Shown: positions 4,589 through 59,863 of the stretch, in pieces
Layout of the letters: the number at the start of each line of letters is the position of its first letter
How positions within the stretch are numbered: the stretch's first letter is position 1
Virus record (IMG/VR): IMGVR_UViG_3300036766_002288
Span: 96,001-160,000 of that record
Direction: 5' to 3' (one strand)
DNA length: 64,000 nt
Source of the DNA: a virus
Program-made: the position numbers and the translations under genes
Notes under the pieces: generated by a model
What the model was told of the DNA's origin: nothing
Database searches by the model: none
What the model saw: the letters and a program-made list of their open reading frames with translations, nothing else

Positions 4589-5407
4589 ATGAGATACAGA
4601 TTAACCGATGAACAAAATTTAGATATTGCAAAGGCTTTCAGTAATGGGGACTCGATAGATGTGTTAGCCACAAAATACAATAAACATAAAGCTTCTATTC
4701 GAAGAATACTATTTAAATTTGATATATTTTCTAAAAACACTAAAAGCAAAACTAAGGGTGGTTTTTCATATAAAGATAAGCTAAAAATTATAAATTTATA
4801 TACCATTGAAAAAAGAGGCAAATCTTACATAGGTAAACTTTTTAATGTGTCAGATTTCAATATCAATTATTGGCTCAAAAAGTGGGGTGTAAAGTCCATT
4901 TCCCGTTCTGATATTTCTACTAAAATACGTGAGATTTATGGTCCTACTAAAGGATTTGGAGGTCGTAAGCATAAAGTAGATTCGAAAATTAAAATATCAA
5001 ATAGTCTTTATGCTTCCTGGGAAGACGATAGAGAGCCAATGATAGGTAAATCACGTACTTATGATACTATAATTGGTAAAGTATTGGGGACGTGGGAAGT
5101 GGCATATTTACAAAAGTTGAAAACCAACAATGAACAATTACCTACACTTTGTCATAAAAGATATAAAACTCCTTATGGAAGTTATAAACCTGACTTTGAG
5201 TTCAACGATAGGTTTATAGAAATTAAAAGCGAGTTCACTTTAAAAGTGGCAAAAGGTAAATATAAAAGTCATGGTAAATATTCGAATAATCAGTTTAAAA
5301 AAATAAAATATGTCAATGACAATATTAAGAAGATTGAAATTATAGTGCTGGACAAGGATGAAGCTATTTCCTATTTTAAAATGGCAAAAAAAGGAATATT
5401 GAAATGA
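4589..5407 (+). mobile_element. Free-standing homing endonuclease (HTH repeats, NUMOD3-like motif, PD-(D/E)xK nuclease)
   Basis: Repeated HTH-like segments, GFGGRKHKVDSKIKIS, C-terminal YKPDFEFNDRFIEIKS; Lys-rich. Confidence 0.7.
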
Positions 5408-6009
5408 AATACGTGAGCGTAGACATAGAAACAACAGGTTTAAATCATGAGAAATGCACCATACTTGAATTCGCAGCCGTAGTTGATGACTTAAATTTGC
5501 AAGAGCCAATTGAAAAATTACCTAAGTTTCAGACTTATGTAAGACAAGAATACTACAGTGGTGAACCATATGCTCTTGCGATGCACTGTGAAAAATTTCA
5601 AAAGATATCTAATTGGCGTGCAAATGGAATTGACGTTTGTTATCCTGAGACACTCATCAAGAAATTTCATACTTTCTTGATAACATTCGGTTATCAAGAA
5701 ACTGGCAGAACTCATTCATCTTTAAAAGATGGTTATATTAAAATAAATGTTGCTGGTAAAAACTTCGCTAATTTTGACAACAGATTTATAGAGAAACTAC
5801 CAGATTATGATAAAATGATTAAAGTTGGACATAGGATTTTAGACCCTGTAATGCTCTATTTTGATCCTAAGAAAGATATTGACCATCTGCCAAGTATGGC
5901 TGAATGCATGGAACGTGCAGGAATCAGTGGTGAAGTTCCACATTCAGCATTAGAAGATGCTGTTTTGGTTGTTAGATTACTAAGACATAAATTTCCTATT
6001 AAAGAGTAA
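5404..6009 (+). CDS. DEDDh 3'-5' exonuclease (DnaQ/oligoribonuclease-like)
   Basis: DIETTG, GKNFANFD, HSALEDA motifs. Confidence 0.85.
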   Translation: MKYVSVDIETTGLNHEKCTILEFAAVVDDLNLQEPIEKLPKFQTYVRQEYYSGEPYALAMHCEKFQKISNWRANGIDVCYPETLIKKFHTFLITFGYQETGRTHSSLKDGYIKINVAGKNFANFDNRFIEKLPDYDKMIKVGHRILDPVMLYFDPKKDIDHLPSMAECMERAGISGEVPHSALEDAVLVVRLLRHKFPIKE

Positions 6010-6016
6010 ATAACAC

Positions 6017-7306
6017 ATGATTACAGACCGTTGGCATGGTATTACTCGTCCTTATAATATAGATCAGATCAGAAGACTCCAAGGTTCTTTTGTCGAAGAA
6101 CACAGCTTGGCAACATTGACTGCCGAAAAACTTTGGGAAAGACTAAATGATAAGCCTTACCTTCATGCATTAGGAGCGGTTACAGGTAATCAGGCCATGC
6201 AAATGGCTAAAGCTGGCTTACCTGCGATCTATTGTTCTGGCTGGCAAGTTGCTGCTGATAATAATGATTCAATGCAAATGTATCCTGACCAATCCTTATA
6301 CGCTGTAAATAGCGTCCCTAATTTAGTTCGCAGAATCAATAATTGTTTAAGACGAGCCGACCAAATTCAGTGGATGGAAATATGTGCAGGGGGCAAATGC
6401 ACCACTGATTATTGGGTTCCTATTGTCGCTGACTGTGAAGCAGGCTTCGGTGGTCCACTCAACGCTTTTGAATTAACAAAAGCAATGATTGAGGCAGGTG
6501 CAGCTGGAATTCATTTTGAAGACCAGTTATCTTCAGCTAAGAAGTGTGGCCATCTAGGTGGTAAGGTTCTGATTCCAGCGTCCCACTTTATCAAGACCCT
6601 GATTGCGGCACGGTTAGCTGCCGATGTTTGCAATGTCCCAACAGTTATCATTGCGCGAACAGATGCAGATAGTGCTAAATTACTAACTTCAGACATAGAT
6701 GCATTAGATGCACCTTTCATAAAGCGTAAAGATGTTTCACTTGTGGGTAATTTTGGTGATACATTAACAAAGTGGGAAGTGTGTAGGACTTCCGAAGGAT
6801 ACTATGAAATAACTGGTGGTATAAACATGGCCATAGCTAGAGGATTGGCCTACGCACCATATGCTGATCTATTGTGGTGTGAAACCTCTCATCCTGACAT
6901 AAATGAAGCAAAAACTTTCGCAGAGGCTATTCATGCCAAATATCCTGGTAAGTTACTGGCTTATAATTGCTCACCCAGCTTCAACTGGAAAAAGCATCTA
7001 AATGAGAGACAGATTGCTGATTTCCAGAAGGAATTGGGACAAATGGGCTATAAATTCCAATTTATTACTCTCGCAGGCTTCCATGCTCTAAATCAAAGTA
7101 TGTTTGATTTAGCACTAGAATATGGCAAGAGAGATATGGAAGCTTACGTAGACTTGCAAGAAAGAGAATTTGATCTACAACACTTTGGTTATACAGCAAC
7201 CAAACACCAGAGAGAGGTCGGTGTTGGTTACTTTGATTTAGTTGCAGAAACTCTTGGCTCCCAATTAACCGCTTTGGACGAATCTACTGAGAAGGAGCAA
7301 TTCTAA
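6017..7306 (+). CDS. aceA: Isocitrate lyase
   Basis: [10 protein letters not shown] catalytic motif, [40 protein letters not shown]; 429 aa. Confidence 0.95.
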
Positions 7307-7602
7307 TGATAGAAGTATTCGCAGATGGCAAAACATTGTCCAACGGAATTTATGTTCAAAGAAAAATTTATTGGGCGGACTGTGAAGTGGCAGGTTGGCC
7401 ACTCGACAAGCCTTGGTTGGCCACAATTAACGTTGGTTCATGGCATTATTCCTCTAGAGGAAACGCAACCAAAGAGGAAGCAATAAAAGATTTATTCGAA
7501 TATATGCAGGAACAAATTAAAGCTCATAAAGACCAGTTAGAATTCCAAAATAATAGGCTCAAAGAACTAACCGAATTTCTAGAGAAGTATAATACTAATT
7601 AG
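7306..7602 (+). CDS. Hypothetical protein
   Basis: 98-aa ORF coupled (TAATG) to aceA. Confidence 0.5.
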   Translation: MIEVFADGKTLSNGIYVQRKIYWADCEVAGWPLDKPWLATINVGSWHYSSRGNATKEEAIKDLFEYMQEQIKAHKDQLEFQNNRLKELTEFLEKYNTN

Positions 7603-7786
7603 GGTCTGAATCCGCCAACCTTTTCAAAGCCTTGCGAAGCATTTTTGCTATCCATTGAGCGTGTTTCTTGGAATCCCTTTCAAACGATTGAAGGGTAAAT
7701 CCTTGGTGGTCAATTGAAAATTCTACTGTCCAAGCCTTCTCAGAGTGCCAAGCAGGTTTGACTCTTACCTTCCATTTCGATTTCAT
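7595..7786 (-). CDS. Hypothetical protein
   Basis: 63-aa ORF coupled to the end of fbp. Confidence 0.45.
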   Translation of the reverse strand: MKSKWKVRVKPAWHSEKAWTVEFSIDHQGFTLQSFERDSKKHAQWIAKMLRKALKRLADSDPN

Positions 7787-8910
7787 GACGCATCCCTAAT
7801 TTTAAATTCCTTCTCCAAGGAATCAAGAGCATCTACAATACCAGTGTACGCCAATTCTGCCTTAGATGCCATGTTAATTCCAAAGAAGCCCTGTCTCCTG
7901 AACTCTTCTGCCTTCTGAGCAATCTTCAGTCTGGTTGCATCCCATACTGTGTTAGCAAAAATATCGACATGTTCAGAGAGTTTGCCCTGCCCATTTAATG
8001 AAAATGCTATACAGGACACAATAGGCAAACAATATGCCCCAGCTACTGGTGAATTGATTGGCATGGGCATTATAGGCATATTATGCGACCCGCGAGCATC
8101 ACCAGTTACATAATGTCCTAATAAATAAGGCTCAATAACCTCTTCTGGTGCTGGGAACATGCCTTGTGTCCTAATAATGGCCACAGGATCGTCCTTGCCA
8201 GTGTATTTGCCAGCAATATTGTGCAATCTAGTTGCGGAAACCGCAACTGTTTGCTCATCTGGCTTATATCTAGAATGAATTTGTTCGACACCGAATTTAT
8301 CAATATCCCTGAGAAGGACTGCAACATCCCATATGCGTTCTGGAACATCCAACTCAATTAACTTATCCCCATCCTTATTATCCATGTCCATAATGGTGAA
8401 CTTAAATCCCTTCTTCATTTTGGGATTCAATAATAGACCACCATCATGCATTGGATCACAAAAAACTTGATAAAGTGGCAGATTATAAGCCCCTGGCCCA
8501 CATTTATCAGCAGCAAATACTAAGAAAGACTCAGCAGGCCGCTCTTTGGTCAGAAGCTCAAATTCAATCTCAGCCACCGCTGGCCCTGCGCCTCTTACGT
8601 TACCTGAAGGTGCGTCCACAAGAAGGTCTTGGCCAGCCCCATACAAACCTTCAACACTTGCTATTTTGGTGGCGTCTTTGAATGTTTGCCATGCAAAATT
8701 ATGGACTTCTGTATTTAATTTACCCTTATCATGTACCATTATTAAACATATATCATCGCCCGTATGAGTGACTCTGCCATCAATCAGGAGTTTATTCAGC
8801 ATGGCGGTACCAATTGCAGAATGACATTGGTTCATCATCATGCTAGATGGCTCAGTATGCCCGCCAATAGAGCCAACGTCAGCTTTGATTACAGAGATAG
8901 TGACTTTCAT
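7783..8910 (-). CDS. fbp: Class V fructose-1,6-bisphosphate aldolase/phosphatase
   Basis: SVIKADVGSIGGH, GDDI, GQDLL..SGN..G.GP, ADK..PGA.N, GKYTGKDDP (Schiff-base Lys), RGSH. Confidence 0.92.
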   Translation of the reverse strand: MKVTISVIKADVGSIGGHTEPSSMMMNQCHSAIGTAMLNKLLIDGRVTHTGDDICLIMVHDKGKLNTEVHNFAWQTFKDATKIASVEGLYGAGQDLLVDAPSGNVRGAGPAVAEIEFELLTKERPAESFLVFAADKCGPGAYNLPLYQVFCDPMHDGGLLLNPKMKKGFKFTIMDMDNKDGDKLIELDVPERIWDVAVLLRDIDKFGVEQIHSRYKPDEQTVAVSATRLHNIAGKYTGKDDPVAIIRTQGMFPAPEEVIEPYLLGHYVTGDARGSHNMPIMPMPINSPVAGAYCLPIVSCIAFSLNGQGKLSEHVDIFANTVWDATRLKIAQKAEEFRRQGFFGINMASKAELAYTGIVDALDSLEKEFKIRDAS

Positions 8911-8964
8911 GAATTGTTCTCGCTAAAGGAAGTTATTTAATGATACTGAAATGATTGTTGGAAA

Positions 8965-9684
8965 TCAACTGGAAATTGTAATTTTCATCGCATCTTTATT
9001 GTAGTTAGCTCGTTTTTTCATACTGGCCAAGCCTGGAGTCTCAGTAGTAATGTAAGGAATGGCATATTCAAGATAAAGCTTATCCTCAATAGTGTTCTTA
9101 GCTGATTCAGGATCAGGAATTAGTCCTTCATAGGTTTTATCTCCCCAACACTCGGATTTCCCAAATATTGGAAAATACTTTCTGGCCAATTCCCTTAAAT
9201 CCTCAGCCACTTGCTTGTGTTCAGTATAATAACAGTACCAACTCTTTATCCTTGGGTCTTCGTGTAAAGTGTGTAATAGAGAAATATTCTCATGCTTAAT
9301 ACCTTCCCAGATGATTTTACAATCCCCTTTTAATTCATCATCCATAAAATGGCGATTCATATCAAAACCATCGGCACAAAATCTCTGATTTCTCTTAAAT
9401 CCATAAGGATTGGCCAAAGGGATTATAACTACTTTCTTGCTTTTTGGGATGTGAACTTTGTTTTTAATGAATTCTAGAACGCCATAAGGACCACCCTTTT
9501 CATTGCCATGTAGCCCTGCGATAAAACATATAGTCTTTTTGGCGTATGGATTCAGAACTAGCTTGAACACACTTTCTCCGTCACTTTCACCTATCTCGGT
9601 AAGCTGGCCATAGCCCTTGCACGCTTCAACAAGGTCTTTGTTAAATTTGAATGTTTCTTTTTTATTAACAAACTCATTGAACAT
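8965..9684 (-). CDS. M14-family zinc carboxypeptidase (succinylglutamate desuccinylase/MpaA-like)
   Basis: AGLHGNE, NPYG, R...G.DMNR.F, LHED, ETP. Confidence 0.8.
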   Translation of the reverse strand: MFNEFVNKKETFKFNKDLVEACKGYGQLTEIGESDGESVFKLVLNPYAKKTICFIAGLHGNEKGGPYGVLEFIKNKVHIPKSKKVVIIPLANPYGFKRNQRFCADGFDMNRHFMDDELKGDCKIIWEGIKHENISLLHTLHEDPRIKSWYCYYTEHKQVAEDLRELARKYFPIFGKSECWGDKTYEGLIPDPESAKNTIEDKLYLEYAIPYITTETPGLASMKKRANYNKDAMKITISS

Positions 9685-9688
9685 ATAA

Positions 9689-9711
9689 TGTATTTAGCCG
9701 CCCTAAATACA
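9689..9711. promoter_or_regulatory. Inverted pair of CTAAATAC motifs (putative divergent late promoters)
   Basis: TGTATTTAG-CCGCC-CTAAATACA between divergent genes; the minus-strand copy lies just upstream of ATG 9684. Confidence 0.5.
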
Positions 9712-9749: not shown

Positions 9750-11183
9750 ATGAACACGATACTAAAAATTAATAACGATTTTAGCTACTTGATAACTTCA
9801 GATACGGTTTTTCGAAACAAATTGTGGGAAAAAATGAGGTTCCGTCAAAGGAACTACTTCCACACGCGGGCCTATCAGCAAGGTATTTGGGATGGTTACA
9901 TCAATTTTCTAGACAAAAAAACAGGTAGATTCCTTACTGGTCTAGTGCCAGAAGTGGAACTTGCCCTTAATAAATACTTCAACATACCATATGATATCAT
10001 TGACGAAAGAAAGCATGTCAAGTTCGCCTACGATTCCATTGATAAGGATTTTCTAAAGCAATGGACTCCTAAAGGAAAACCTCCAGTAGAACTATATGAC
10101 TATCAGGTGGACCTAACTAATCAGGCTATAAAACATGGTAGGGGTATAGTAAAATCACCCACTGCTTCTGGGAAGACGAATATTTTAATAGCTATATTGA
10201 AAGCTCTGCCACCGAACACTCCCACTTTGTTTCTAGTAAATAGAAAGACTTTGGTTTCTCAGAATTATAAAGAAATGATAAAGTGGGGGTTGAAGAATGT
10301 AGGTCGTTTCAACAGTGATTATCATGAACCAAATCTTATAACTTGTGCCAACGTTCAATCTCTACATCACTTAGACCGTCTATTGCCAAAATTCAAGATT
10401 TTAGTAACAGACGAAGTTCATACGATGACCAATAATAGTGGCATCAGGGCTTTCAAAAAGCTTACTGGCACAACAATCAGGATTGCTGTAAGTGCTACAC
10501 CATTTAAATTCGGGGGAAAGGATTTAGTACAGAAATATACTGCGAAGGGTTATTTTGGACCAGTGTTTGAAGTGGCTAGTGGCGAGGATGGAAAATTAAC
10601 TACCTCCTTCTTACAAAAAAGAGGAACTTTATCTAAGTCTTTATGTAGGTTCTACCCTATTGATGAACCACAAATACCTTATGATATATGGATCGACGCC
10701 GTTACTAACGGAATCGCCAATAACTTCCATTTTCACAAGATAGTGGCAAAACTATCTGCTAAACTAGCAGGCAGAACACTTATTCTTGTGGACAGAATCG
10801 CACATGGAGATGCACTGAACAACTTAATCCCTGACTCTTTGTGGGTACGCGGCCAAGATGATGAAAAGACCAGGGATTATGTAATTGAAAGACTAACAAG
10901 TGAAAAAAACAAGGTCGTAGCTATTGCCACAAGACAGATTTTCGACACAGGTATAAACTTCTTCTTACACAATGTCATAAATGCTACAGACGTGTCATCA
11001 GAGCATGGTATTGTTCAGTTGATGGGTCGTGGATTAAGAACCGCTGCCGATAAAGAAATTCTAAATTATTATGACTTTGTTTATAGGATTAATCCCTATT
11101 TAGAAAAACATTCTCTCAATAGAATCAAAACTTTAAGAAAAGAAAAACATGAAGTTGTTATTATGGATAAGATAGACTTTTAA
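9750..11183 (+). CDS. uvsW: UvsW-like superfamily 2 DNA helicase
   Basis: YDYQ, SPTASGKT, DEVH, SATP, TGIN, QLMGRGLR. Confidence 0.85.
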   Translation: MNTILKINNDFSYLITSDTVFRNKLWEKMRFRQRNYFHTRAYQQGIWDGYINFLDKKTGRFLTGLVPEVELALNKYFNIPYDIIDERKHVKFAYDSIDKDFLKQWTPKGKPPVELYDYQVDLTNQAIKHGRGIVKSPTASGKTNILIAILKALPPNTPTLFLVNRKTLVSQNYKEMIKWGLKNVGRFNSDYHEPNLITCANVQSLHHLDRLLPKFKILVTDEVHTMTNNSGIRAFKKLTGTTIRIAVSATPFKFGGKDLVQKYTAKGYFGPVFEVASGEDGKLTTSFLQKRGTLSKSLCRFYPIDEPQIPYDIWIDAVTNGIANNFHFHKIVAKLSAKLAGRTLILVDRIAHGDALNNLIPDSLWVRGQDDEKTRDYVIERLTSEKNKVVAIATRQIFDTGINFFLHNVINATDVSSEHGIVQLMGRGLRTAADKEILNYYDFVYRINPYLEKHSLNRIKTLRKEKHEVVIMDKIDF

Positions 11184-11679
11184 GAACATTGTTCAAATTA
11201 TACAGATTGTATTTTAGAAGGGTTTCAACCTGTTCTTTATTTGTGGAGATGAATTCTATATTCTCTGATATTTTAGTAATTTCTTGGCCTGCATTGGTGC
11301 CGTAATTACCAATTATTTCCTCTCCAGCCATTATATCTCTTGTAAACTTGTATATGATTTGTCCCGCATGTTGACTTCGCTTATTTAAGCCTTTTTCATA
11401 TACAAGTTTACAATTACTTAATTCGTCACTATGGTTGACCATACCGCCATAGCCCATTGGCACAATCTTGGCATCAAGTTTATCACTTCCTGCAAACTTA
11501 TACCGTTTTGCGTATTGAGTGCATTGGTCAGCTAGACCATTAGTTTTTACATAAACACCAATGACCTCAAGCCAATCATTCTTTTTGAGTGGTATTTTAG
11601 CAAAACAACCATTACCAGCATTTGGTATGGTTGATGGGGCGATATAGAATCGTTCATCAGTTTCTTCTACAAATATCAT
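11161..11679 (-). CDS. SET-domain protein (lysine methyltransferase-like)
   Basis: STIPNAGNGCFA, GGMVNHS..N, RDIMAGEEIIGNYG. Confidence 0.85.
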   Translation of the reverse strand: MIFVEETDERFYIAPSTIPNAGNGCFAKIPLKKNDWLEVIGVYVKTNGLADQCTQYAKRYKFAGSDKLDAKIVPMGYGGMVNHSDELSNCKLVYEKGLNKRSQHAGQIIYKFTRDIMAGEEIIGNYGTNAGQEITKISENIEFISTNKEQVETLLKYNLYNLNNVLKSLSYP

Positions 11680-13794: not shown

Positions 13795-14025
13795 ATGGCT
13801 CAAGCTTTTATAGATCATTTCGAGGTAGAAACCCTTGGTGTTACGGCAAACTTAAAAGCGGCTAATATGGCCCATATTGTCATGGAAGTTTTAGGCTATT
13901 TTAAGTTCGGTACTATAGATATCCAACTTATAGTCACAGAAGTTCTAGGCAAAACACCTAATCAAAGCCTGACTTTTATAGACCATTTTACGGCAGAAAC
14001 GATTGGGCAGTGGGCAGGCTTTTAG
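13795..14025 (+). CDS. Small protein with four xxxExLG repeats
   Basis: AGGAG RBS before ATG 13795; repeats FIDHFEVETLG, MAHIVMEVLG, IQLIVTEVLG, FIDHFTAETIG. Confidence 0.6.
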   Translation: MAQAFIDHFEVETLGVTANLKAANMAHIVMEVLGYFKFGTIDIQLIVTEVLGKTPNQSLTFIDHFTAETIGQWAGF

Positions 14026-14048
14026 AAAGCATTTTCATTACCAATTAT

Positions 14049-14088
14049 TTCATAAAACTTACTATATAATTATAGGAGGCTTTATGAA
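14049..14088 (+). promoter_or_regulatory. Hairpin covering the RBS and ATG, with ACTATATA at the apex
   Basis: TTCATAAA...CTATA-TAAT-TATAG...TTTATGAA pairs across GGAGG and ATG 14084. Confidence 0.6.
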
Positions 14089-15154
14089 GTTTAAAGAATT
14101 AAATATAGAAGAGTTCAAGACATATTACGTTGCCAATCAAAGCAAAGAGGTTGCTATCAAGTATGGGATTGCTCCTTCTACAGTAGCGGGGTGGGCAAGA
14201 AAATTAGACTTGCCAAGAAAATCCTTTACTTATCTAAATGAAAATATTAAATTTACCGACCGCCAATTAGATGTATTGACTGGTTCGTTATTAGGCGATG
14301 GTTCGCTTAATAAAATTAAACCTAACACTAATTGTCAATCACATTATGAAGAGGGACACAGCGAAGATCAATTAGGTTGGCTGACTTGGAAACATGATAT
14401 GTTATCACCTTTATCTAATGACATATTTTATAAAAAACGTAAAGGTTTAATAAATTTACCGAATGGCAAAATATTATCTGATCCTAAGAGAAGCCATAAT
14501 AGCTATGGCTTCAACACAATTAAACACCCGACTCTAACAGAGATGGAAAGGCGGTGGTATAAGAGAAATGAAAATGGTAAGTATGTTTACAAAATATCCA
14601 AAAGTAAAAAATATAGAATAAAAATAGTGCCAGAAATTGAGCTAACACCATTTATTTTGTCTGTATGGTATATTGATGATGGCTCAAAAGATGTTAGGAC
14701 TAAAAGATGTAAACTATCAACGCAGGGATTTACTAAAACAGCAGTGGAATCACTAGTGACTAAAATAAAAAAATTAGGAATTCATGATTGCTATATTGGA
14801 AAACATACTGGATATGTGATATACATTGGAACTTACTCATATTTTGATTTCATAAACATGGTCAAGAACCAATTGCCAGACTTACCACAAGATGTTCAAT
14901 ACAAAATTGATTTATCTGGATACAATCCAGCTACCAAGTGGAGCGATAACAAAACAGGCATACCTTTTTTCAGACTTGAAAAAGGAAAATATTGTGGAAC
15001 GGTTATGATAAATTATAAATCAATTTATCTAGGGTCTTATGATTTTAAAACAGCACAAAAGGTTTCAAAAGAAGTAGAATACTTAGTTAGGCATAAATGT
15101 AAAGAACCAGATAAGTATATCGAAATTAAAAACAAATATACCAACTCACGTTGA
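14084..15154 (+). mobile_element. LAGLIDADG homing endonuclease (two motifs, N-terminal HTH, C-terminal AP2-like domain)
   Basis: LTGSLLGDGSL and LSVWYIDDGS motifs; GGAGG RBS before ATG 14084. Confidence 0.85.
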
Positions 15155-16039
15155 TAGGAAATCCATCAATACTCGTTCCACGTCTTTTTCCCAATATGGA
15201 ATGATTAACAATTTTTTGTTATTAGTTTTACACCAATCAACTTTGATTTTATCTTTACTTTGTTGTTTAACGAAATTACTTCCACCATCATGCTTACCCC
15301 ATTTTACTGGCTTATAATGTTGTTGACCTTGAAATTCAATTAGAAATTCTTCATCATTAACAATAACGCTAAAATCAAATGGTAATGGAAGTATATTGCG
15401 GCATTCTGAGAATCTCCGCTCTTTTGTAAAAATAATACCTTTTCTTTTTAAGATTGATTCTATTAGAGATTCACCATAAGAAGCTCCAACACAACCGCAG
15501 GATTTGGTCCACCCAAATTTCAATTTAGCGGCAACAACTTCAGTTGAGTTTCCGCAATCACACTGACACAGCCAAATCCATTGCGATTTATTTTTTCGTA
15601 ATGGTTTTATCGCAATCAAAAGACCAAATCTTTGTCCTGAAATTTTTAGTCTTAACCGTGTGGACATTCTATCCTTGTGGTAGCAACTACACGATTGCGT
15701 CTTGCCAGATTTTAGCTGTGGTCCTTTGACGAATACGATATTGCCACAATCGCATTGACACTCCCATAGTTGTTGATTCCAACGATCAACTCCAGCTGAT
15801 GAAATCACCATCAGCCTGCCGTATCTATTACCGACCAAATAATCCCTTTCACGTTTACTTACACATTCGCTCTTATAGCAACCACACGAAGTAGTGTCAC
15901 CCCTACGAAGCATACTTCCAAGTGCTTTATGAATGTTTCCACAATCACATTGACACTCCCATAACCTATTACCGATATACTTAATTACAACCAATCTCCC
16001 AAATCTCTTACCAGTCATTTCTGTTCGTTTTCTACCCAT
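15146..16039 (-). mobile_element. Homing endonuclease with three CxCDCG/SCGC Zn repeats and a C-terminal PD-(D/E)xK (DUF559/Vsr-like) domain
   Basis: Three G.R[FY]G.L...W.C.CDCG...SC[GS]C units; LPFDF...LIEFQGQQHY. Confidence 0.8.
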
Positions 16040-16042
16040 TTT

Positions 16043-16792
16043 TTACTCAGTGACAAAAGCCTCATCTTTTAAAACAAATATATATTCCGTATAACCCAAC
16101 AGATATTGAAGTCCAATACATGTTAGGCATAGTAAAGATTGTTTGTAAACGTTTTCAATATATTTTTTATGGCAACCATAATCTCTAAATCCTTCTATAG
16201 GACGTTCATGTCCTTCTGGGACAATTCCACCTATACCATAATCTACCAAATTAGTATATTTCTTTTTTTGTTTACTAAATTCAATCTCGTTTGTACAAAT
16301 TCTTATCAAATCCGTATGTTCAAAATCAAGTAAACCACCAATAATAATACAAGCAGATGTTGGACATCGTTCTGAAATTGTTATACCTTCATCTGGCATA
16401 ACAATTTTCCCATAAATGAAATCAGAACTTTTGATACAAAAAGCAAGGGGTCTGCGATTGTTACAAATAGTTGAATCATGTGATGGTGCAAATACAATTT
16501 TATTTTTTTCAATCAACTCAGCAATAGGTCCAGTAAATTCAATTTGAAAAATTGCATTACTGTCATTAACTCCGTTAATTGCTCGTATTGCTTCATTCAG
16601 ATCACATTGCTTAAGATTATATTCAATAAACCTATTTTGTTTGACAAATTCATCAAGCAACTTGTCACTATATCTTCTGTGATTACCCAAATGACTATCT
16701 GGCTTAAGTTTCCCACACCTATCCCAATTCCGTAAAGTGCTTTCACTGACCTTAAGCATTTCCGCGACCTCTGAAATTGTAAAATTTAACAT
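16043..16792 (-). CDS. MerR-type HTH DNA-binding protein with unknown C-terminal domain
   Basis: FTISEVAEMLKVSESTLRNWDRCGKL..HRRY; AAGGAG RBS before ATG 16792. Confidence 0.65.
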   Translation of the reverse strand: MLNFTISEVAEMLKVSESTLRNWDRCGKLKPDSHLGNHRRYSDKLLDEFVKQNRFIEYNLKQCDLNEAIRAINGVNDSNAIFQIEFTGPIAELIEKNKIVFAPSHDSTICNNRRPLAFCIKSSDFIYGKIVMPDEGITISERCPTSACIIIGGLLDFEHTDLIRICTNEIEFSKQKKKYTNLVDYGIGGIVPEGHERPIEGFRDYGCHKKYIENVYKQSLLCLTCIGLQYLLGYTEYIFVLKDEAFVTE

Positions 16793-16875
16793 AAATCTCC
16801 TTTTGGTTACACTTATATAGTGTGTTGCCAGCAGAATTGCGGGATAAATTTTGTTAATTCTACAAAATATATTCA

Positions 16876-17169
16876 TTATTCTGGTGGGTATTTCCCAATA
16901 GGTCCACTTTTTAATTCTGTTGCGTCCATAGAACGATATTTGCCACCTGCCAGTCCAGAAACAAATATAGCAGTTTCTTTCCTATCAAGAAATCGCCCCT
17001 TGTTAGTTAGAAAACCACTGATCCACTCTTTACCATATTCACTATCTGGAATTACACTAGAAAGATGAACAGGCCCAGATGGATAAATCTTCCCGTCAAT
17101 ACTAAAGGCCGCTTGAACAATTTTCTCAATATCGGCACTTTCTATCCATTGTTTAAATCTGATTATCAT
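16876..17169 (-). CDS. Hypothetical protein with CTS-like N-terminus
   Basis: MIIRFKQWIE start; GFLTNKGRFLDRKE motif. Confidence 0.55.
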   Translation of the reverse strand: MIIRFKQWIESADIEKIVQAAFSIDGKIYPSGPVHLSSVIPDSEYGKEWISGFLTNKGRFLDRKETAIFVSGLAGGKYRSMDATELKSGPIGKYPPE

Positions 17170-18384: not shown

Positions 18385-19260
18385 ATGATAATGAATTTTC
18401 TATCTATTGATGATTTGTCCAATATAAACATTACCAATATATTTGAACTTGCCACAAATGCGTCAAGGTGCCCGCCGACTAGACTTAATAATAAAATAAT
18501 TGCGACTGCTTTTTTTGAACCTTCAACAAGAACCAAACTATCCTTCCATTCTGCAATCCTGCGCATGGGTGGCACGTATATTGACCTGCCAGACAATTCT
18601 TCTTTGAAAAAAGGAGAAAGTGAAGAAGACACAGTGAGAACTTTGTCTCAATATGCCGACTGCATCATCATTCGTCATCCGAAAGACGTTAGAAATTTAG
18701 CACATTATTCTAACGTCCCTGTCATTAATGCTGGAGATGGTAGTAATGAACATCCAACACAGGCTTTATTGGACATGTTCACAATAATAGAAAATGTCCA
18801 ATGGCCAAATTTAAAAATAATGTTCACAGGAGACTTGTATCATAGTAGGACTATTAATTCTTTAGTAAGAGCTTTAGATAAGTATATTACGCACGCAAAC
18901 TGTGCCCCAGGAAATGTCGAATTTATATTCACTAACGATATAAACTCTGAATTAAAAAGATATCCACATACAATGATAGATGAAAAAGATATACCATATT
19001 GTATTGATACAGTGGACGTTCTTTATATGACTCGTCCACAAATAGAAAGACATAACCCCTTAGACAAGGCTACACATAGCGATTTTGTATTGACAAATGA
19101 GTTGGCTAACAAAATGAAAAAGGATGCAGTTATTATGCATCCCCTTCCACGTACAAAAGAGTTATTGCCAGAAGTTGACAGCAATCCCCGTGCTAAATAT
19201 TTCGACCAAGTAAAGAATGGAGTTTATATCAGGATGGCACTTCTTTACTGGTTACTTTAA
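18385..19260 (+). CDS. pyrB: Aspartate carbamoyltransferase catalytic subunit
   Basis: FFEPSTRTKLSF, INAGDG..EHPTQALLD, YMTRPQIER, MHPLPR, NGVYIRMALL. Confidence 0.95.
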   Translation: MIMNFLSIDDLSNINITNIFELATNASRCPPTRLNNKIIATAFFEPSTRTKLSFHSAILRMGGTYIDLPDNSSLKKGESEEDTVRTLSQYADCIIIRHPKDVRNLAHYSNVPVINAGDGSNEHPTQALLDMFTIIENVQWPNLKIMFTGDLYHSRTINSLVRALDKYITHANCAPGNVEFIFTNDINSELKRYPHTMIDEKDIPYCIDTVDVLYMTRPQIERHNPLDKATHSDFVLTNELANKMKKDAVIMHPLPRTKELLPEVDSNPRAKYFDQVKNGVYIRMALLYWLL

Positions 19261-20942
19261 CGCCCGTGACAAATCGGCAATCTACGACCAATTCCAAATG
19301 CAATAGGCGTGATCTTAATGCCAGGAGCGGCCTGTCTACGCTTAAACTCATTGATGTTGATTAAACGAATCATTCGCTTATATTTTTCTTCAGCATCCTT
19401 GCTATCAATCCAATCTTGTATAGGAATGTGGCGACTATTGTTGTAATACTCTCTGAAAGCTTTAAAATCCCCAATAAATTCTTCAACATAAGCTTCCACA
19501 ATCGCATCCAAAATTGGATAGGGTAACAGACTAGCTTCGTCAGTTTGCCCTGGAGCAAGTTCAGCAGATGGGGCTTTAGTTAAGATATTCTCAGGAATGT
19601 AGTATTTACGTGTTCTGCCCGATCTTCCATCTTGATTATAAAAATGTGCCATGTCATAAACCTGCATTTTATACAGGTCATTAATCGGACAGAAGCCACC
19701 ATTCATATCGCCATACAAAGTGCAGTAACCAAGTGCTAATTCAGTCTTATTACCAGTTGATAACAACAAAGCATCGAATGCATTGGAATAATACATAAGA
19801 ATCATACCGCGAAGGCGGGCTTGAATGTTTTCATCTGCAATTGGCTTAGGGTCTATTCCCATCTTTAAATTAGCCAATATATGACCAATGAAAGGATTAT
19901 GAGCAATAGGAATAATATGATCGTGACAACCTAAATTATTATGTAATAGTTCAGCATCATTCTTAGAATGTTCACTACTAATTGTAGTAGGCATACGAAT
20001 GCCGTGAACATTTTCAGGGCCAATAGCATCACAGGCTAACGATAAGACTAATGCACTATCAATACCACCACTAGACCCGACAACAACTTGTTTAAAACCA
20101 CTTTTAGTGATATAATCCTTTAGCCCTAGCTTAATCATATCATAAGGTTCATCTCGTAAAATAGAACCCCATTGATCTGCTCTATTGGCATCGTCATAAA
20201 ACTGATATGGTTCCATTCCAGCTACAGCCTTTACTAAACCTTTTTCTACAATAAAACTATTGCCATCAAACACTAATTCGTCCTGTCCACCAAGCTGATT
20301 ACAATAGATTATAGTGCCAATTTTGTCTGTGCTTTGCTTGACCATTTCGATACGCTTCTTGGGCTTGCCCCGAACGAAAGGAGAGCTATTAATACTAATA
20401 ATGTTATAAATACCCCTAGTCCGATATGCTTCTAATGGATTGAATTGGTAATTATAATCATCGCTACCTTTGTCATTCCATAAATCTTCGCAGATACAAA
20501 TACCCCATTTCTGCCCACAAATTTCAACTACAGTTAATTCTGTGCCAGGTGCAAAATATCTTCCTTCATCAAAAACGTCGTAGAATGGCAAAAGGTGTTT
20601 TTGATAAGTGGCGATTAAGCGAGGCCCTTTAAATACCGCCGCCATGTTACGGAACGGTTTACCACAACCACTATAGTTGCGGTCGATATAACCAATTACA
20701 ATATGTGGTTCATAACCAGCAGGAAGATATGAAGGAAGGGCCTGTAAACAATCTAAATTTTTTCCTATAAAATCTTTGCGAAACATCATATCTTTACAAA
20801 GATAACCAGGAATAGCTAACTCTGGGAATACAATTAAGTCAGCGTTATTTCTCCTACCTTCAGCTATGCCAACTACAATTTGTTCATAATTCCTTACGAA
20901 ATCATTAGGTATTGTATTGATTTGACAGATAAGGGTTTTCAT
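19257..20942 (-). CDS. nadE: Glutamine-dependent NAD+ synthetase
   Basis: Nitrilase triad (FPEL, QKHLLP, ICEDLW) plus SGGIDS, NIQARLRG, STGNKTE, GYCTLYGD, FKRRQA; start at ATG 20942 behind GGAG. Confidence 0.95.
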   Translation of the reverse strand: MKTLICQINTIPNDFVRNYEQIVVGIAEGRRNNADLIVFPELAIPGYLCKDMMFRKDFIGKNLDCLQALPSYLPAGYEPHIVIGYIDRNYSGCGKPFRNMAAVFKGPRLIATYQKHLLPFYDVFDEGRYFAPGTELTVVEICGQKWGICICEDLWNDKGSDDYNYQFNPLEAYRTRGIYNIISINSSPFVRGKPKKRIEMVKQSTDKIGTIIYCNQLGGQDELVFDGNSFIVEKGLVKAVAGMEPYQFYDDANRADQWGSILRDEPYDMIKLGLKDYITKSGFKQVVVGSSGGIDSALVLSLACDAIGPENVHGIRMPTTISSEHSKNDAELLHNNLGCHDHIIPIAHNPFIGHILANLKMGIDPKPIADENIQARLRGMILMYYSNAFDALLLSTGNKTELALGYCTLYGDMNGGFCPINDLYKMQVYDMAHFYNQDGRSGRTRKYYIPENILTKAPSAELAPGQTDEASLLPYPILDAIVEAYVEEFIGDFKAFREYYNNSRHIPIQDWIDSKDAEEKYKRMIRLININEFKRRQAAPGIKITPIAFGIGRRLPICHGR

Positions 20943-20953
20943 TTTAACTCCAA

Positions 20954-21166
20954 TCAATGTTCATATTCGCCTAACGCACTTAAGAATATGTCATTATCCA
21001 AAGCTTTACGAAAAATATCTTCTACGGTTTTGATACTCATGCCTAGTGTTTCTAAAAAGAACACTCTTTCCTCGTTGTTCATTTCGCGTGTAGTCTCACG
21101 AAGACGTTTATTATATTCTAGAACTTCATCAAGGATTTCATTACGTCGTTCGATTCTTAACATCAC
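20954..21166 (-). CDS. Hypothetical protein
   Basis: 70-aa helical ORF. Confidence 0.45.
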   Translation of the reverse strand: MMLRIERRNEILDEVLEYNKRLRETTREMNNEERVFFLETLGMSIKTVEDIFRKALDNDIFLSALGEYEH

Positions 21167-49444: not shown

Positions 49445-49483
49445 ATGACTAATAAAATTTGCATATTCGCACAGTCTTATTAA
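49445..49483 (+). pseudogene. Dead 5' copy of the dNMP kinase gene
   Basis: Encodes MTNKICIFAQSY-stop versus MNKICVFAQLS at 50268. Confidence 0.8.
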
Positions 49484-49506
49484 GGCATGGACACTATATT
49501 AATTGT

Positions 49507-50271
49507 ATGGAATACGATCATAAGCAAATTTTAGAATTATATGGATTAGGGTTCACATGTCGAGAGATAGCGGACGCTATAGGGTGCAATCATAGAAGTG
49601 CTGCCTACGTAGTGCAGAAGCATGGCAAGAGTAGATATAAAGGTCCGAGGCCAGGTATTGTTTTTAAGGATGTTTTAAAATGCCAAAAATTCAATCAAAA
49701 ATTTATAGAGTATCTTGATGGATTAGTAATATCTGATGGTAGTTTGACATGTAAAGCTACATCTCCAACTGCTTGTTATAGGCAATCATGCGTTAATTTG
49801 GATTGGCTTAAGTATATTGGTGTGGAGTTTAATGGGAGAGAAATTAAGACTATATTTTCCATAGATGGTAGGAAAAAGAGAATATCCCATGTGTTAAGGA
49901 CTCCAGTTTACGAGGAGTTTTTCAGTCAGTATTCTAGATGGTACATTAATGACAAGAAAATAGTTCCGAGGGACTTAAATTTTTTAAGTAAGACATTTTT
50001 AATAAATTGGGTATATGGGGACGGCACGCTCGTAAACAATAGTACTCTTAGGTTATGCACAGATGATTTTACTGAAAAAGAAGTAGATTGGCTGATATTT
50101 TATTTGAATAAAAATCTTGACTTAAGATTCAAAAAAGTTTATATGGGAATGAGTAAAAAAGGCAATCCTAAATTTAGACCCGCATTATGTTTGCGTGATG
50201 GTTTGCTGGATTTTTATAAATATATAGGAAATCCCATTAGTTGTTTTAACTATAAGTGGAGATATAAGTGA
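49507..50271 (+). mobile_element. LAGLIDADG homing endonuclease with N-terminal HTH
   Basis: YLDGLVISDGSL and LINWVYGDGT, LRLCTDDFTEKEV; ACTATATT just upstream of ATG 49507. Confidence 0.85.
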
Positions 50272-53196: not shown

Positions 53197-53235
53197 ACAA
53201 CAGAGAGTGTGAAATATCACTCTCTGTTGTTTTTT
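53197..53235. terminator. Terminator at a convergent gene junction
   Basis: ACAACAGAGAGTG/CACTCTCTGTTGT 13-bp stem plus T-run. Confidence 0.75.
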
Positions 53236-53882
53236 ACACGATGTTTTAGTTTTCCTATCCCGACTTCGGTTATGACGATGAATTCCCAGCCTCTAGTTTG
53301 ACAATAAAGGGTTGCAGCGTGCCATTTAGCTTCGTTGAGTGGCAGCATAGTCTGGTTTGCTGGTTTGATTTCCCACACTTCTACATGTCCGTCGTTGAAT
53401 TTGAGTAGTATATCTGGGAAGTAATGGTGTGCTTCACCTTTGTACAAATAAGGAATTCCTTGCTTGAATGGTTGGGCTTCATAGGCTATGACTTCTGGGA
53501 TTACTTCAATACATTCCAGCACTTCACATTCATAGCTAGATTCATATTCAAATTCTTTACCACCGTTTTTCAAGCTGACAAAGTGACCTTTTCTAAAAGT
53601 TGGTTTTCTTGATTTCTTACCACCTTTTTTACCAATGTCTTTCCAAACTATTGCTCTGTTGGGGCCTTTTTGCATTGGCATTGAGTCTTGTGGGTGTTTG
53701 GCTTTGAAATGTAGCATTACATCTCTTACAGGTGCGCCGCAACGGGCCAATGGGCAGACAACATACTCTCTTCCTTCTTCGTGTTTTTCCAATATATGGG
53801 CGCGAAATGTTTCAAAATCTCCATATTCGTGGCCACAAACAAAACATTGCCATTTTCTTTTGCCGTCGTCTTTTCCGAACAT
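53217..53882 (-). CDS. C2H2 zinc-finger protein with gp4/TnsA-like PD-(D/E)xK nuclease domain
   Basis: CFVC..HILEKH and CPLARC..HFKAKH; YESSYE, IPY, HYFPD, EIKP, NEAKWHAA, FIVITE. Confidence 0.75.
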   Translation of the reverse strand: MFGKDDGKRKWQCFVCGHEYGDFETFRAHILEKHEEGREYVVCPLARCGAPVRDVMLHFKAKHPQDSMPMQKGPNRAIVWKDIGKKGGKKSRKPTFRKGHFVSLKNGGKEFEYESSYECEVLECIEVIPEVIAYEAQPFKQGIPYLYKGEAHHYFPDILLKFNDGHVEVWEIKPANQTMLPLNEAKWHAATLYCQTRGWEFIVITEVGIGKLKHRVKNNRE

Positions 53883-57008: not shown

Positions 57009-57668
57009 ATGATGTTAATTAGTGATAGGTCTGTAGATGGTAAACTTATAGAGGATTTGACGCCTTCTAGTGAAAGAAGAGTATTGGCAAAGTGCGACAA
57101 ATGTGGGATTGTAAAGGAGTTAATATATGCTAATTACTCTCGGTCACAGGTTAAGAATGGATATAATGGACTGACATATTGCAGGAAGTGTGTAACTCAA
57201 TTCAATGGTATAAAACGTCGTGGTAAAGTGCCCCATAATAAAGGCAAGAAACTAAAAGCCGAACAAAAAGGTGTAAATCATCCAAGTTGGAAAGGTGGAA
57301 AGTATGTTGATGGCAACGGATATGTAATGGTTTACATTGGTGATAATAGTTCAGAAATTGGGTGGAACTCCTACAGGAAAGAGCATACAATTGTTGTTGA
57401 AGACTTTTTGAATAGGAAGTTGGCCGTAGATGAGGTGATTCACCATATTGATGGTGATAAAACAGAAAACCAAATAGAAAATTTATGGCTGACAGATGGG
57501 GTTGGGCATAGAAAAGCACATAATTCTTTGCAGAATATTGGGTATGTTCTTTACAAAAAAGGCATAATAGGTTTTGATAAAACTCAAGGTTTTTATTTTT
57601 TGAAGGATAATCATGAGAATTTTGAAAGCTCCGAAGGTTTACTTGGTTGCTCGTCCTCAGATTGTTGA
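57009..57668 (+). mobile_element. HNH homing endonuclease with Zn ribbon
   Basis: CDKC...CRKC, HPSWKGG, EH..V..L.RKL..DEVIHHIDGDKTENQIENL. Confidence 0.85.
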
Positions 57669-58488
57669 AGAAGGTCTAAACGATTTTCTGAAAGATCAAA
57701 AACTTGATTGGCCTACTCCCACCGAAGGTGTGAAGGGTGCAGAGCGTTTGGTGGAGTTATCTGGCCGCTGTTGTTATATGTCTTTTGGAAAAAAGGCAGG
57801 CAGTAAGACCAATAGGAAGTATATCCAAAATCTACTTGGCAGAGAAGAAGATGGAAGTTTTAAGCCAGGCCCTGCACATGGCTCTGTTTGTGAACATCCT
57901 TGTTGGAGTTTCTTAATTGTAGGTGCAGGACGTGGATTTACTCATGAGCAAGTAAGGCATCGGACGGGGTGGGCATATTCACAGCTTAGTACACGTTACT
58001 GTGATTTTGAAAGAGAAGAGGAAGAAGGAACTTGGGAGCCTGGTTTCTGTGTGCCACCTCTTGCTCAATTAAGCGAAGAAGCGACAATCGCATTTAATGA
58101 AAAAATCAAAAAGAGCCAACAGGCTTATTGCGAATTATTAGCTTTAATTGAGAATGATTTAAAAAATAGCAAACTCTTTATGGATACTCTTTCTGGATAT
58201 GAGGAAAGGGAGCGTAAGAGGATGTTAAGGAAAGCTGCCCGTGGTGCAGCGAGAGATATCTTACCGATTGCCACTGAAGCAATCATGGTCATGAGTGCTA
58301 ATGCTAGGGCTATATGGAACTGCATTTATCTTCGTGCTAATGAACATGCGGAAGCGGTGATAAGAGATATATATGTTCAGATAGCAAAGATAATGGAAGC
58401 CGAGATGCCAGCATTATTCAACAATATCAAGTATGAGAAGTGTTGGGACGGTAGTGAAGTTGTTATCATGCCTAGAGATAAATTATAG
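57613..58488 (+). CDS. thyX: Flavin-dependent thymidylate synthase
   Basis: HGSVCEH, RGFTHEQVRHR..YSQLSTRY, ARDILP. Confidence 0.92.
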   Translation: MRILKAPKVYLVARPQIVEEGLNDFLKDQKLDWPTPTEGVKGAERLVELSGRCCYMSFGKKAGSKTNRKYIQNLLGREEDGSFKPGPAHGSVCEHPCWSFLIVGAGRGFTHEQVRHRTGWAYSQLSTRYCDFEREEEEGTWEPGFCVPPLAQLSEEATIAFNEKIKKSQQAYCELLALIENDLKNSKLFMDTLSGYEERERKRMLRKAARGAARDILPIATEAIMVMSANARAIWNCIYLRANEHAEAVIRDIYVQIAKIMEAEMPALFNNIKYEKCWDGSEVVIMPRDKL

Positions 58489-59145: not shown

Positions 59146-59619
59146 ATGAATACATTATTATTTTGTTTACTATTACAGAATCCTATGATTGACCTAGTGA
59201 AAGAAGGAAAAGTAGCCACCTTGTCAACAACTTATGACAAGGTGGCTTTTGGTTCGTTATCACCATACGTTTTAGACAGTAAGGGCAATCCAGTTATTTT
59301 TGTAAGTGACATGGCACTTCATACGAAGAACCTTAAAAAAGACCCAAAATGTAGTTTGATGATTGCCAAGTTAAGTAAAGACGACATTTTTAACAGTGCT
59401 AGGATTACTTTTGTTGGTAAGATGGTCAAGGTGCCAGATAAGGAATTAGACGTAATTAGAAAGATTTATCTGGAAAAATACCCTGCTGCTAAGAACTTTG
59501 TTGAACTTGAAGACTTCGCTTTTTATAGATTAGAAATAGACAAGATTTATTGGGTCGGCGGGTTTGGTGATATAGAATGGATTGATGTTAAGGAGTACTT
59601 AGAGAATTTCAATGAATAA
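59146..59619 (+). CDS. Pyridoxamine 5'-phosphate oxidase-like split barrel (HugZ/HutZ family)
   Basis: ATLST, FGS..PY, VS..ALHTKNL..DP.CSL, RITF.G, DF.FYRL, VGGFG. Confidence 0.8.
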   Translation: MNTLLFCLLLQNPMIDLVKEGKVATLSTTYDKVAFGSLSPYVLDSKGNPVIFVSDMALHTKNLKKDPKCSLMIAKLSKDDIFNSARITFVGKMVKVPDKELDVIRKIYLEKYPAAKNFVELEDFAFYRLEIDKIYWVGGFGDIEWIDVKEYLENFNE

Positions 59620-59863
59620 AGATGCCGAAGAAATATTGCGTTTATACGAAACGTGCTATGCATACAATGAGTCTTTTAATTTTTACTATAAGCAAACGAT
59701 GCCAAGATGTGAGTGTGAGGAATTTATAACAAGAAGAAATGTATGTAAAGGCGGTCATTGGGTTGTGCGACGTAAAATAGTCTATCAAGAGCATTTCGAG
59801 TTATTAAAAGATAAAATTTGTGCGGGGGATGGGAGTGAATTGTATACATATGGACCTGATTAA
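59612..59863 (+). CDS. Hypothetical protein
   Basis: 83-aa ORF. Confidence 0.4.
   Translation: MNKDAEEILRLYETCYAYNESFNFYYKQTMPRCECEEFITRRNVCKGGHWVVRRKIVYQEHFELLKDKICAGDGSELYTYGPD

Follow-up and report, generated by a model that had tools for sequence, protein, structure and literature searches.

Why does a phage genome carry an isocitrate lyase (ICL) next to a class V fructose-1,6-bisphosphate (FBP) aldolase/phosphatase (FBPA/P), and do the two enzymes belong together? The genes in question meet in a stretch of 64,000 nucleotides (hereafter, the window), which corresponds to positions 96,001–160,000 of the 187,011-bp IMG/VR record IMGVR_UViG_3300036766_002288. In an initial annotation made from the sequence, they had been read as a phage gluconeogenesis module. 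As detailed below, the pair is not an operon and does not look like a conserved module, and its two genes probably arrived separately. The best overall explanation, to which we assign a probability of roughly 60%, is that an old ICL gene of this phage clade was joined by a later FBPA/P insertion in a cargo slot, that both enzymes are active, and that fructose-1,6-bisphosphatase (FBPase) activity was selected.

Probable separate arrival of the two genes

Gene by gene, the locus and its surroundings (more than 40 kb) follow the order of GenBank LR756511.1 (595,163 bp, deposited as 'uncultured phage genome assembly'), and the locus is likewise collinear with the IMG/VR huge-phage fragments L003 and L006. 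Its genes form two convergent units, one on the plus strand (exonuclease, ICL, orf98) and one on the minus strand (AstE-like gene, FBPA/P, orf63), followed by a helicase gene:

5404–6009, plus strand: DnaQ/RNase T-like exonuclease (Pfam RNase_T, 1.8e-09), a backbone gene and the left border of the cargo slot
6017–7306, plus strand: isocitrate lyase of the AceA type, 429 amino acids (aa), with Pfam, NCBIfam and PDB matches
7306–7602, plus strand: orf98, a 98-aa open reading frame (ORF), function not assigned, that accompanies the ICL gene in relatives
7595–7786, minus strand: orf63, a hypothetical 63-aa ORF, possibly not a real gene, part of the inserted segment
7783–8910, minus strand: class V FBPA/P, 375 aa (Pfam FBPase_3)
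8965–9684, minus strand: AstE/AspA-like M14-type zinc hydrolase (Pfam AstE_AspA_cat, 3.3e-11), a backbone gene and the right border of the slot
9750–11183, plus strand: ResIII/DEAD-type helicase, a backbone gene diverging from the minus-strand unit (85% aa identity to L003, 61% to LR756511.1)

The two enzyme genes are thus convergent and parted by the two small ORFs only, just as initially described. The ICL gene starts 8 nt downstream of the exonuclease gene on the same strand, and the start of orf98, with AAGGAG upstream, overlaps the ICL stop codon by 1 nt (its last base). On the other strand, the AstE-like gene lies upstream of FBPA/P, whose stop overlaps the start of orf63 (ATGA); the 3' ends of orf98 and orf63 overlap by 8 nt. 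Since they lie convergently on opposite strands, the ICL and FBPA/P genes cannot be co-transcribed. Scans for promoters and terminators gave counts near the shuffled expectation. Both borders of the slot are conserved: homologues of the exonuclease occupy the same place in L003/L006 (83.5% aa identity) and LR756511.1 (53%), and homologues of the AstE-like gene stand beside the slot in L003 (73%) and LR756511.1 (56%).

What lies between these borders varies. The order in L003/L006 is exonuclease, ICL, small ORF, AstE-like gene and helicase, which is the order of the window minus orf63 and FBPA/P. The FBPA/P profile PF01950 was not found in seven related records. In LR756511.1, which lacks both ICL and FBPA/P, another gene occupies the exonuclease/AstE slot, such that this slot differs in content between all three phages. 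Judged by these comparisons, FBPA/P together with orf63 is a lineage-specific insertion of ~1.36 kb in a variable cargo slot. The insertion is not bordered by any convincing repeats, and its ends were not placeable to the base by DNA alignment, the relatives being too diverged. For orf63, no homologue was present in any fetched locus, and its GC content at third codon positions (GC3) is 0.438 (z = 2.6 versus the genome).

The ICL gene, in turn, travels with orf98. This ORF has only six homologues among 5.8 billion proteins, four of them on contigs that match in size those of phage-clade ICL hits, and is a backbone gene confined to this phage clade (window 7306–7602, L004 11212–11505, L096 511–783). 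Its AlphaFold2 model (pLDDT 85) comprises four strands and a long C-terminal helix, a predicted fold for which there was no PDB match. In LR756511.1, orf98 stands without ICL at another place, flanked by homologues of two genes located 22 kb upstream of the window. In the related record L004, the ICL gene sits beside orf98 at this very place, whereas the window and L003 have the pair in the exonuclease slot; ICL and orf98 thus moved as a unit.

Altogether, ICL and FBPA/P co-occur in the window, in a ~92%-identical relative from another study (run X3, see below) and probably on a 14,287-bp contig; L003/L006 and L004/L005 have ICL without FBPA/P, and LR756511.1 lacks both. FBPA/P and orf63 would have entered later than ICL, between the exonuclease and AstE-like genes, downstream of the latter and on the strand opposite to ICL. 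The two enzyme genes would then be neighbours because both occupy the cargo slot, and not as an operon. Of the proposed gluconeogenesis module, what holds is a plausible gluconeogenic or anaplerotic purpose, backed by a second FBPase, GlpX, in related phages (see below); the notion of a conserved unit is not supported, given the convergent arrangement and the relatives that have ICL without FBPA/P.

Integrity and history of the isocitrate lyase

The phage ICL matches the Pfam ICL family (4e-96) and scores 683 bits on the NCBIfam isocitrate lyase equivalog PRK15063 (cut-off 562), while models for methylisocitrate lyase score it far under their cut-offs. It aligns over its full length with solved bacterial ICLs (PDB 6lrp, 5e-167). 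The KKCGH motif from which the initial annotation had recognized an intact AceA comprises residues 175–179 (nt 6539–6553). In an alignment of 41 sequences (the 39 best hits and two named bacterial proteins), SGW, PDQSLY, KKCGH, ARTDA and TLAGFH were invariant in 41/41; all substrate- and Mg-binding motifs (SGW, DxEAGFGG, ARTDA, NCSPSF, TLAGFH) are present along with KKCGH and are invariant or nearly so. The catalytic residues we take to be those assigned in the literature on the Mycobacterium tuberculosis and Escherichia coli enzymes. With these features in place, the protein looks catalytically intact. An 18-aa insert at residues 237–254 (window 6725–6778) is shared with only some of the aligned relatives, mostly members of the phage ICL clade; at this point, the long ICL model of Pfam leaves out ~90 positions in a row.

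In the ICL tree, clades with starred support of 33 and 42 sequences included proteins on contigs of 587–623 kb as well as IMG/VR fragments. The sister clade of the phage ICL clade contains a protein named Cytophagales. The ICL gene would thus have long been present in this phage clade, vertical inheritance being the simplest account. One further member of the phage ICL clade (P0143) is encoded on an 85,802-bp contig labelled Candidatus Parcubacteria, which may be a misbinned huge-phage contig.

Integrity and origin of the aldolase/phosphatase

The initial identification of a class V FBPA/P by its GKYTGKDDP motif (encoded at nt 8186–8211, minus strand) was borne out. The protein matches Pfam FBPase_3 (PF01950, 2.4e-139) over profile positions 1–361 of 361 and aligns over its full length with the Sulfolobus (9e-78) and Thermoproteus (5e-71) enzymes. 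Tyr229 and Lys232 of the Thermoproteus enzyme have Y236 and K239 as their aligned counterparts here, and the Tyr229Phe substitution that sets PDB 3t2g apart from 3t2b falls exactly at the position aligned with Y236. As in Sulfolobus tokodaii ST0318 (PDB 1umg, 3r1m) and Thermoproteus neutrophilus (PDB 3t2b–3t2g), this tyrosine/lysine pair of the GxYxGKDDP loop is kept, and so are the N-terminal KADxGS..GH and GDD motifs. In an alignment of 20 FBPA/P sequences, D11, H18, D52, D53, Y236, K239, D240, D241 and Y355 were invariant. Among these residues are what we presume, recalling the 2011 structure papers in Nature, to be the Schiff-base lysine, the catalytic tyrosine and the N-terminal metal ligands. 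The score of 439 bits on the NCBIfam equivalog NF041126 is under the cut-off of 520; however, seven relatives, four of which are named bacterial proteins, score alike (424–441 bits), which marks the shortfall as a property of the subfamily and of how the model was built rather than as gene decay. Like ICL, FBPA/P looks catalytically intact, and the full-length family matches of both are far stronger than chance would give.

Phylogenetically, the window protein forms a nine-member clade with eight unnamed metagenome proteins (72–92% identity; starred support) and has no long branch. This clade stands apart from proteins of Acidobacteriota, Chloroflexota, Methylomirabilota, candidate-phyla bacteria and Woesearchaeota at 64–70% identity, with relatives from Pseudomonadota at ~58–61%; Nitrosomonas, Bradyrhizobium and Methylomirabilia are among the cellular relatives. 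No donor could be named from this tree. The enzyme class had initially been called typical of archaea and deep-branching bacteria, a description that does not fit this subfamily, in which nearly all named members come from bacteria, are widespread and in many cases belong to typically mesophilic lineages. Unlike the archaeal enzymes, the window FBPA/P is virus-encoded, and its function is predicted from sequence.

A huge-phage genome around the locus

Could the two genes be host DNA, from the flank of a provirus or brought in by an assembly chimera? IMG/VR labels the record 'provirus', 37% complete. The 187-kb record amounts to ~37% of the genome by CheckV estimate; the absences reported below cover 187 kb of ~590 kb. 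Yet the locus is flanked by T4-type replication genes or phage-only families (DnaB, UvsX, gp32, a DNA polymerase at 826 bits, ribonucleotide reductase (RNR) and SbcC), and the ICL and FBPA/P proteins are both on record on one contig of 590,099 bp. From its gene content and collinearity, we take the window to be an interior part of a huge phage of ~590 kb from sediment. Contigs of 596,617 and 623,153 bp encode proteins identical to the ICLs of L003 and L004; the clade's 'provirus' records therefore appear to have been trimmed from genomes of ~0.6 Mb. Besides, the codon usage of both genes matches the rest of the phage genome, a sign of amelioration: GC3 is 0.326 for ICL (z = 0.0) and 0.370 for FBPA/P (z = 1.0), and the correlation of their codon usage with that of the genome ranks at the 77th and 53rd percentile, respectively.

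Contig continuity, the check advised in the initial annotation, was assessed by placing public assembly contigs on positions 5400–9700; three runs, all of them sediment metagenomes, contributed. In the probable source run as assembled by Logan, the locus is split between two contigs that overlap by 27 nt at 7756–7782, with depths of 12.4 and 12.6 on either side. A contig of 151 nt from a second study bridges positions 7702–7852 with zero differences, and a 7.3-kb contig from a third study (run X3; ~92% identical) spans positions 7361–9700, that is, orf98, orf63 and FBPA/P into the AstE-like gene. FBPA/P is hence found in the same phage backbone in assemblies from three sediment studies. The break in the Logan assembly coincides exactly with the FBPA/P stop and the orf63 start, and may reflect a strain variant at the edge of the insertion.

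The provirus label and the 27-nt join are what could speak for host DNA or a chimera. Against them stand backbone genes directly on both sides, collinear with three other huge-phage records, a junction bridged in two other studies, the equal depth on both sides of it in the probable source run, a composition that matches the phage, and the ICL-identical proteins of two related 'provirus' records on contigs near the size of the 595-kb phage genome. An origin as chimeric host DNA, which the initial annotation had named as fatal to its proposal, is thereby effectively excluded. As phage genes flank both sides on one contig and the layout recurs in independent assemblies, the two genes qualify as phage auxiliary genes.

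Other features of the region are listed for completeness. A SET-domain protein is encoded at window 11161–11679 (minus strand; PF00856, 1.8e-07) and is conserved in L003 (71%) and LR756511.1 (61%). The backbone is interrupted by mobile-nuclease-type ORFs at 4589–5407, 14003–15154, 49459–50271, 53217–53882 and 57009–57668 (two LAGLIDADG, one TnsA-like, one HNH and one 272-aa ORF with no Pfam match), and the ORFs at 4589–5407 and 14003–17169 are missing from the collinear relative L003.

A second FBPase in related huge phages

An ICL-bearing relative, the 341-kb record G002, encodes an intact class II FBPase, GlpX (348 bits). An ICL identical to that of G002 is recorded from a 623-kb contig. The glpX gene lies between a DnaG-like primase gene and a volactin gene, ~125 kb from ICL in G002:

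L107:9588–10508 (G002:C1:224096–224998), also L110–L117: GlpX, class II FBPase

The same synteny was seen in at least nine other IMG/VR contigs (58–91% identity), one of them a 532,729-bp record rated complete. LR756511.1 and the record G001 have the same primase–volactin slot without GlpX, and no class I FBPase was found. The neighbouring volactin gene encodes an actin-like protein (PF25216, 1.2e-66; L107:13946–14956, minus strand; LR756511.1 548783–549799) with 79% identity between G002 and LR756511.1.

Among the auxiliary genes that papers of 2025 list for soil and trench-sediment viromes is a viral glpX (PMC12615777, PMC12448302), reported in one of these studies (PMC12615777) as a carbon-fixation gene. 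Like viral GlpX, the FBPA/P of the window would serve the step from FBP to fructose-6-phosphate, and GlpX occurs in the same huge-phage group. Unlike GlpX, which is a phosphatase only, FBPA/P belongs to a non-homologous family that also makes FBP from triose phosphates, and GlpX occupies a different, conserved genome position. The two enzymes being unrelated, this huge-phage group acquired the FBP-to-fructose-6-phosphate step at least twice, which argues for selection on FBPase activity and makes a gluconeogenic reading of FBPA/P credible.

Relation to published phage genes

The initial annotation had held that neither enzyme is commonly cited in phages. For ICL, this has to be revised, as phage ICL is already known from huge phages: a recent preprint describes 98 huge phages with 98 genes for ICL and 22 for malate synthase (bioRxiv 10.1101/2025.02.27.640493), a marine T4-like viral genome carries an aceBA operon (Nishimura et al. 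2017, PMC5332604), and ICL has been published for viromes, too. Like the 98 huge-phage ICLs, the enzyme described here is of the bacterial AceA type, has an intact active site and comes from a very large phage, and, like most of the reported 98 phages, ours has no malate synthase beside it. In contrast to both the published huge-phage ICLs and marine aceBA, its neighbour is an FBP aldolase/phosphatase. Neither fructose nor gluconeogenesis appears in the main text of the preprint or in the available part of its supplement; Al-Shayeb et al. 2020 do not mention isocitrate, gluconeogenesis, central carbon or LR756511.

For FBPA/P, the initial statement stands. Neither tblastn against 50,697 GenBank phage records nor four scans for its motif in 2.9 million IMG/VR contigs turned up an FBPA/P, in collections that leave out the window's own record; the six matches of a looser IMG/VR scan were all due to chance. 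As a control, the motif scan matched the window and 51/81 cellular loci. We found no paper on class V FBPA/P in a virus, some spellings of the enzyme's name not being searchable. The presence of FBPA/P in a virus thus appears new, while the ICL part was already known.

Proposed role and competing explanations

Three further genes of the window bear on what the two enzymes may be for:

18385–19260, plus strand: pyrB (Pfam OTCace_N/OTCace)
19257–20957, minus strand: nadE (PHROG NAD synthetase, 3.8e-104)
59820–61235, plus strand: HldE-like protein combining a PfkB kinase with a cytidylyltransferase-like domain, which may consume hexose or heptose phosphate

Just upstream of the HldE-like gene lie those for a CREG/PNPOx-like flavin-binding barrel protein (59146–59619) and for ThyX (57613–58488).

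Both enzymes look active from their sequences. In a host living on non-sugar carbon, ICL would divert isocitrate to succinate and glyoxylate, thereby saving C2- or tricarboxylic acid cycle (TCA)-derived carbon from loss as CO2. Together with a malate synthase of the host, it would provide net C4 acids and, from them, oxaloacetate, aspartate and phosphoenolpyruvate. A supply of aspartate would fit the phage's pyrB and nadE, as both pathways draw on aspartate or phosphoribosyl pyrophosphate (PRPP). FBPA/P, as a single enzyme, would convert triose phosphates irreversibly to fructose-6-phosphate and so take the committed gluconeogenic step without the aldolase and FBPase of the host. The resulting hexose and pentose phosphates could supply the synthesis of nucleotides, NAD and sugar nucleotides needed for a very large genome, with ThyX, RNR and the HldE-like gene as possible consumers. 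In this scheme, FBPase activity would be the selected trait, and FBPA/P this lineage's version of what GlpX provides in related huge phages.

The initial proposal that carbon is pushed towards hexose and pentose phosphate, consistent with pyrB, nadE and hldE, is plausible, and pyrB, nadE and an HldE-like gene are indeed present; the connecting steps are not encoded in the 187 kb. The reactions of ICL and FBPA/P are about eight steps apart, and the host would have to supply what lies between them. The lack of a visible malate synthase, correctly remarked upon for the window, extends to the whole 187-kb record (no match to PF01274), which lacks CitE/HpcH as well. Nor did the search advised for aceB, pckA and ppsA succeed there: malate synthase, ATP-type PEPCK, PpsA/PPDK, SIS or GmhA-type isomerases, transaldolase, PRPP synthetase and CitE-type lyases were not found in the 187 kb or in four related records.

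Could selection nevertheless have kept ICL and FBPA/P adjacent, as entry and exit of a phage route from acetate to hexose? We consider a co-adapted module of this kind unlikely. The genes lie less than 0.5 kb apart, their layout recurs in the ~92%-identical relative of run X3, both probably share a contig in a more diverged relative, and the ICL-bearing G002 has an FBPase too. However, the convergent genes share no transcript, L003/L006 carry ICL in the same slot without FBPA/P, the GlpX of G002 is encoded ~125 kb from its ICL, most GlpX-bearing phages have no ICL in the parts covered, and the 187-kb record lacks genes for malate synthase, PEPCK and PpsA/PPDK. Several points nonetheless weigh against our preferred explanation of an old ICL and a later, separate FBPA/P insertion. 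The absence of aceB, pckA, ppsA and a GlpX of its own covers 187 kb of ~590 kb only. The run X3 relative has the same arrangement of the ICL side and FBPA/P, and the FBPA/P relative P0002 (88%) and the ICL relative P0132 (80%) are each encoded on a contig of 14,287 bp, probably one and the same given the equal size. In more than one lineage, therefore, the two genes have stayed linked, and co-selection is conceivable. Moreover, GlpX-bearing phages mostly lack ICL in the parts covered, such that the two activities are not obligately tied, and the independence of the phage enzyme from host regulation is something we infer rather than a result.

It is quite improbable, in our estimation, that FBPA/P serves an autotrophic or other non-acetate metabolism of the host, such as the turnover of FBP and sedoheptulose-1,7-bisphosphate in a Calvin-type cycle, its adjacency to ICL being coincidental. 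The cellular relatives among Nitrosomonas, Bradyrhizobium and Methylomirabilia, the report of viral glpX in carbon fixation and the three contents of the slot in three phages would all accord with it; on the other hand, no Calvin-cycle genes were noted among the ORFs scanned, and the Cytophagales-named protein in the sister clade of the phage ICLs is a weak hint at a heterotrophic origin of that gene, with no assignment of a host. Still less do we expect one or both genes to be mere passengers, be it in decay, without activity or serving a non-catalytic purpose. In favour of such a view, FBPA/P has a small lineage, close relatives lack the gene, and its product scores under the NCBIfam cut-off; against this, both ORFs are full length with all checked catalytic residues kept, FBPA/P is conserved at 72–92% over its nine-member clade without a long branch for the window protein, codon usage matches the phage, and the sub-cut-off score is common to named bacterial relatives.

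An old ICL with a later FBPA/P insertion, both active and with FBPase activity under selection, remains the reading we prefer. Going beyond it, we put forward tentatively that the FBPase step is a recurrent target of huge phages, met by GlpX in many lineages and here by the first virus-encoded bifunctional FBPA/P, which together with ICL may force C2 and TCA carbon to hexose phosphate in sediment bacteria, independent of host regulation.

Meaning for huge phages

In cyanophages, the auxiliary genes talC, zwf, gnd and CP12 steer central carbon to pentose phosphates for nucleotide synthesis. The phage described here would follow a similar logic in redirecting central carbon to sugar phosphates, yet with different enzymes and in a presumably non-photosynthetic sediment host; no transaldolase was found in the 187-kb record. 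FBPA/P is thus an addition to a known class of phage central-carbon auxiliary genes. Virus-encoded enzymes of this class show which host reactions limit virus production. The occurrence of GlpX and FBPA/P in one huge-phage group points to the committed gluconeogenic step as such a bottleneck, which would concern phages that build genomes of 0.5–0.6 Mb in sediment hosts living on non-sugar carbon.

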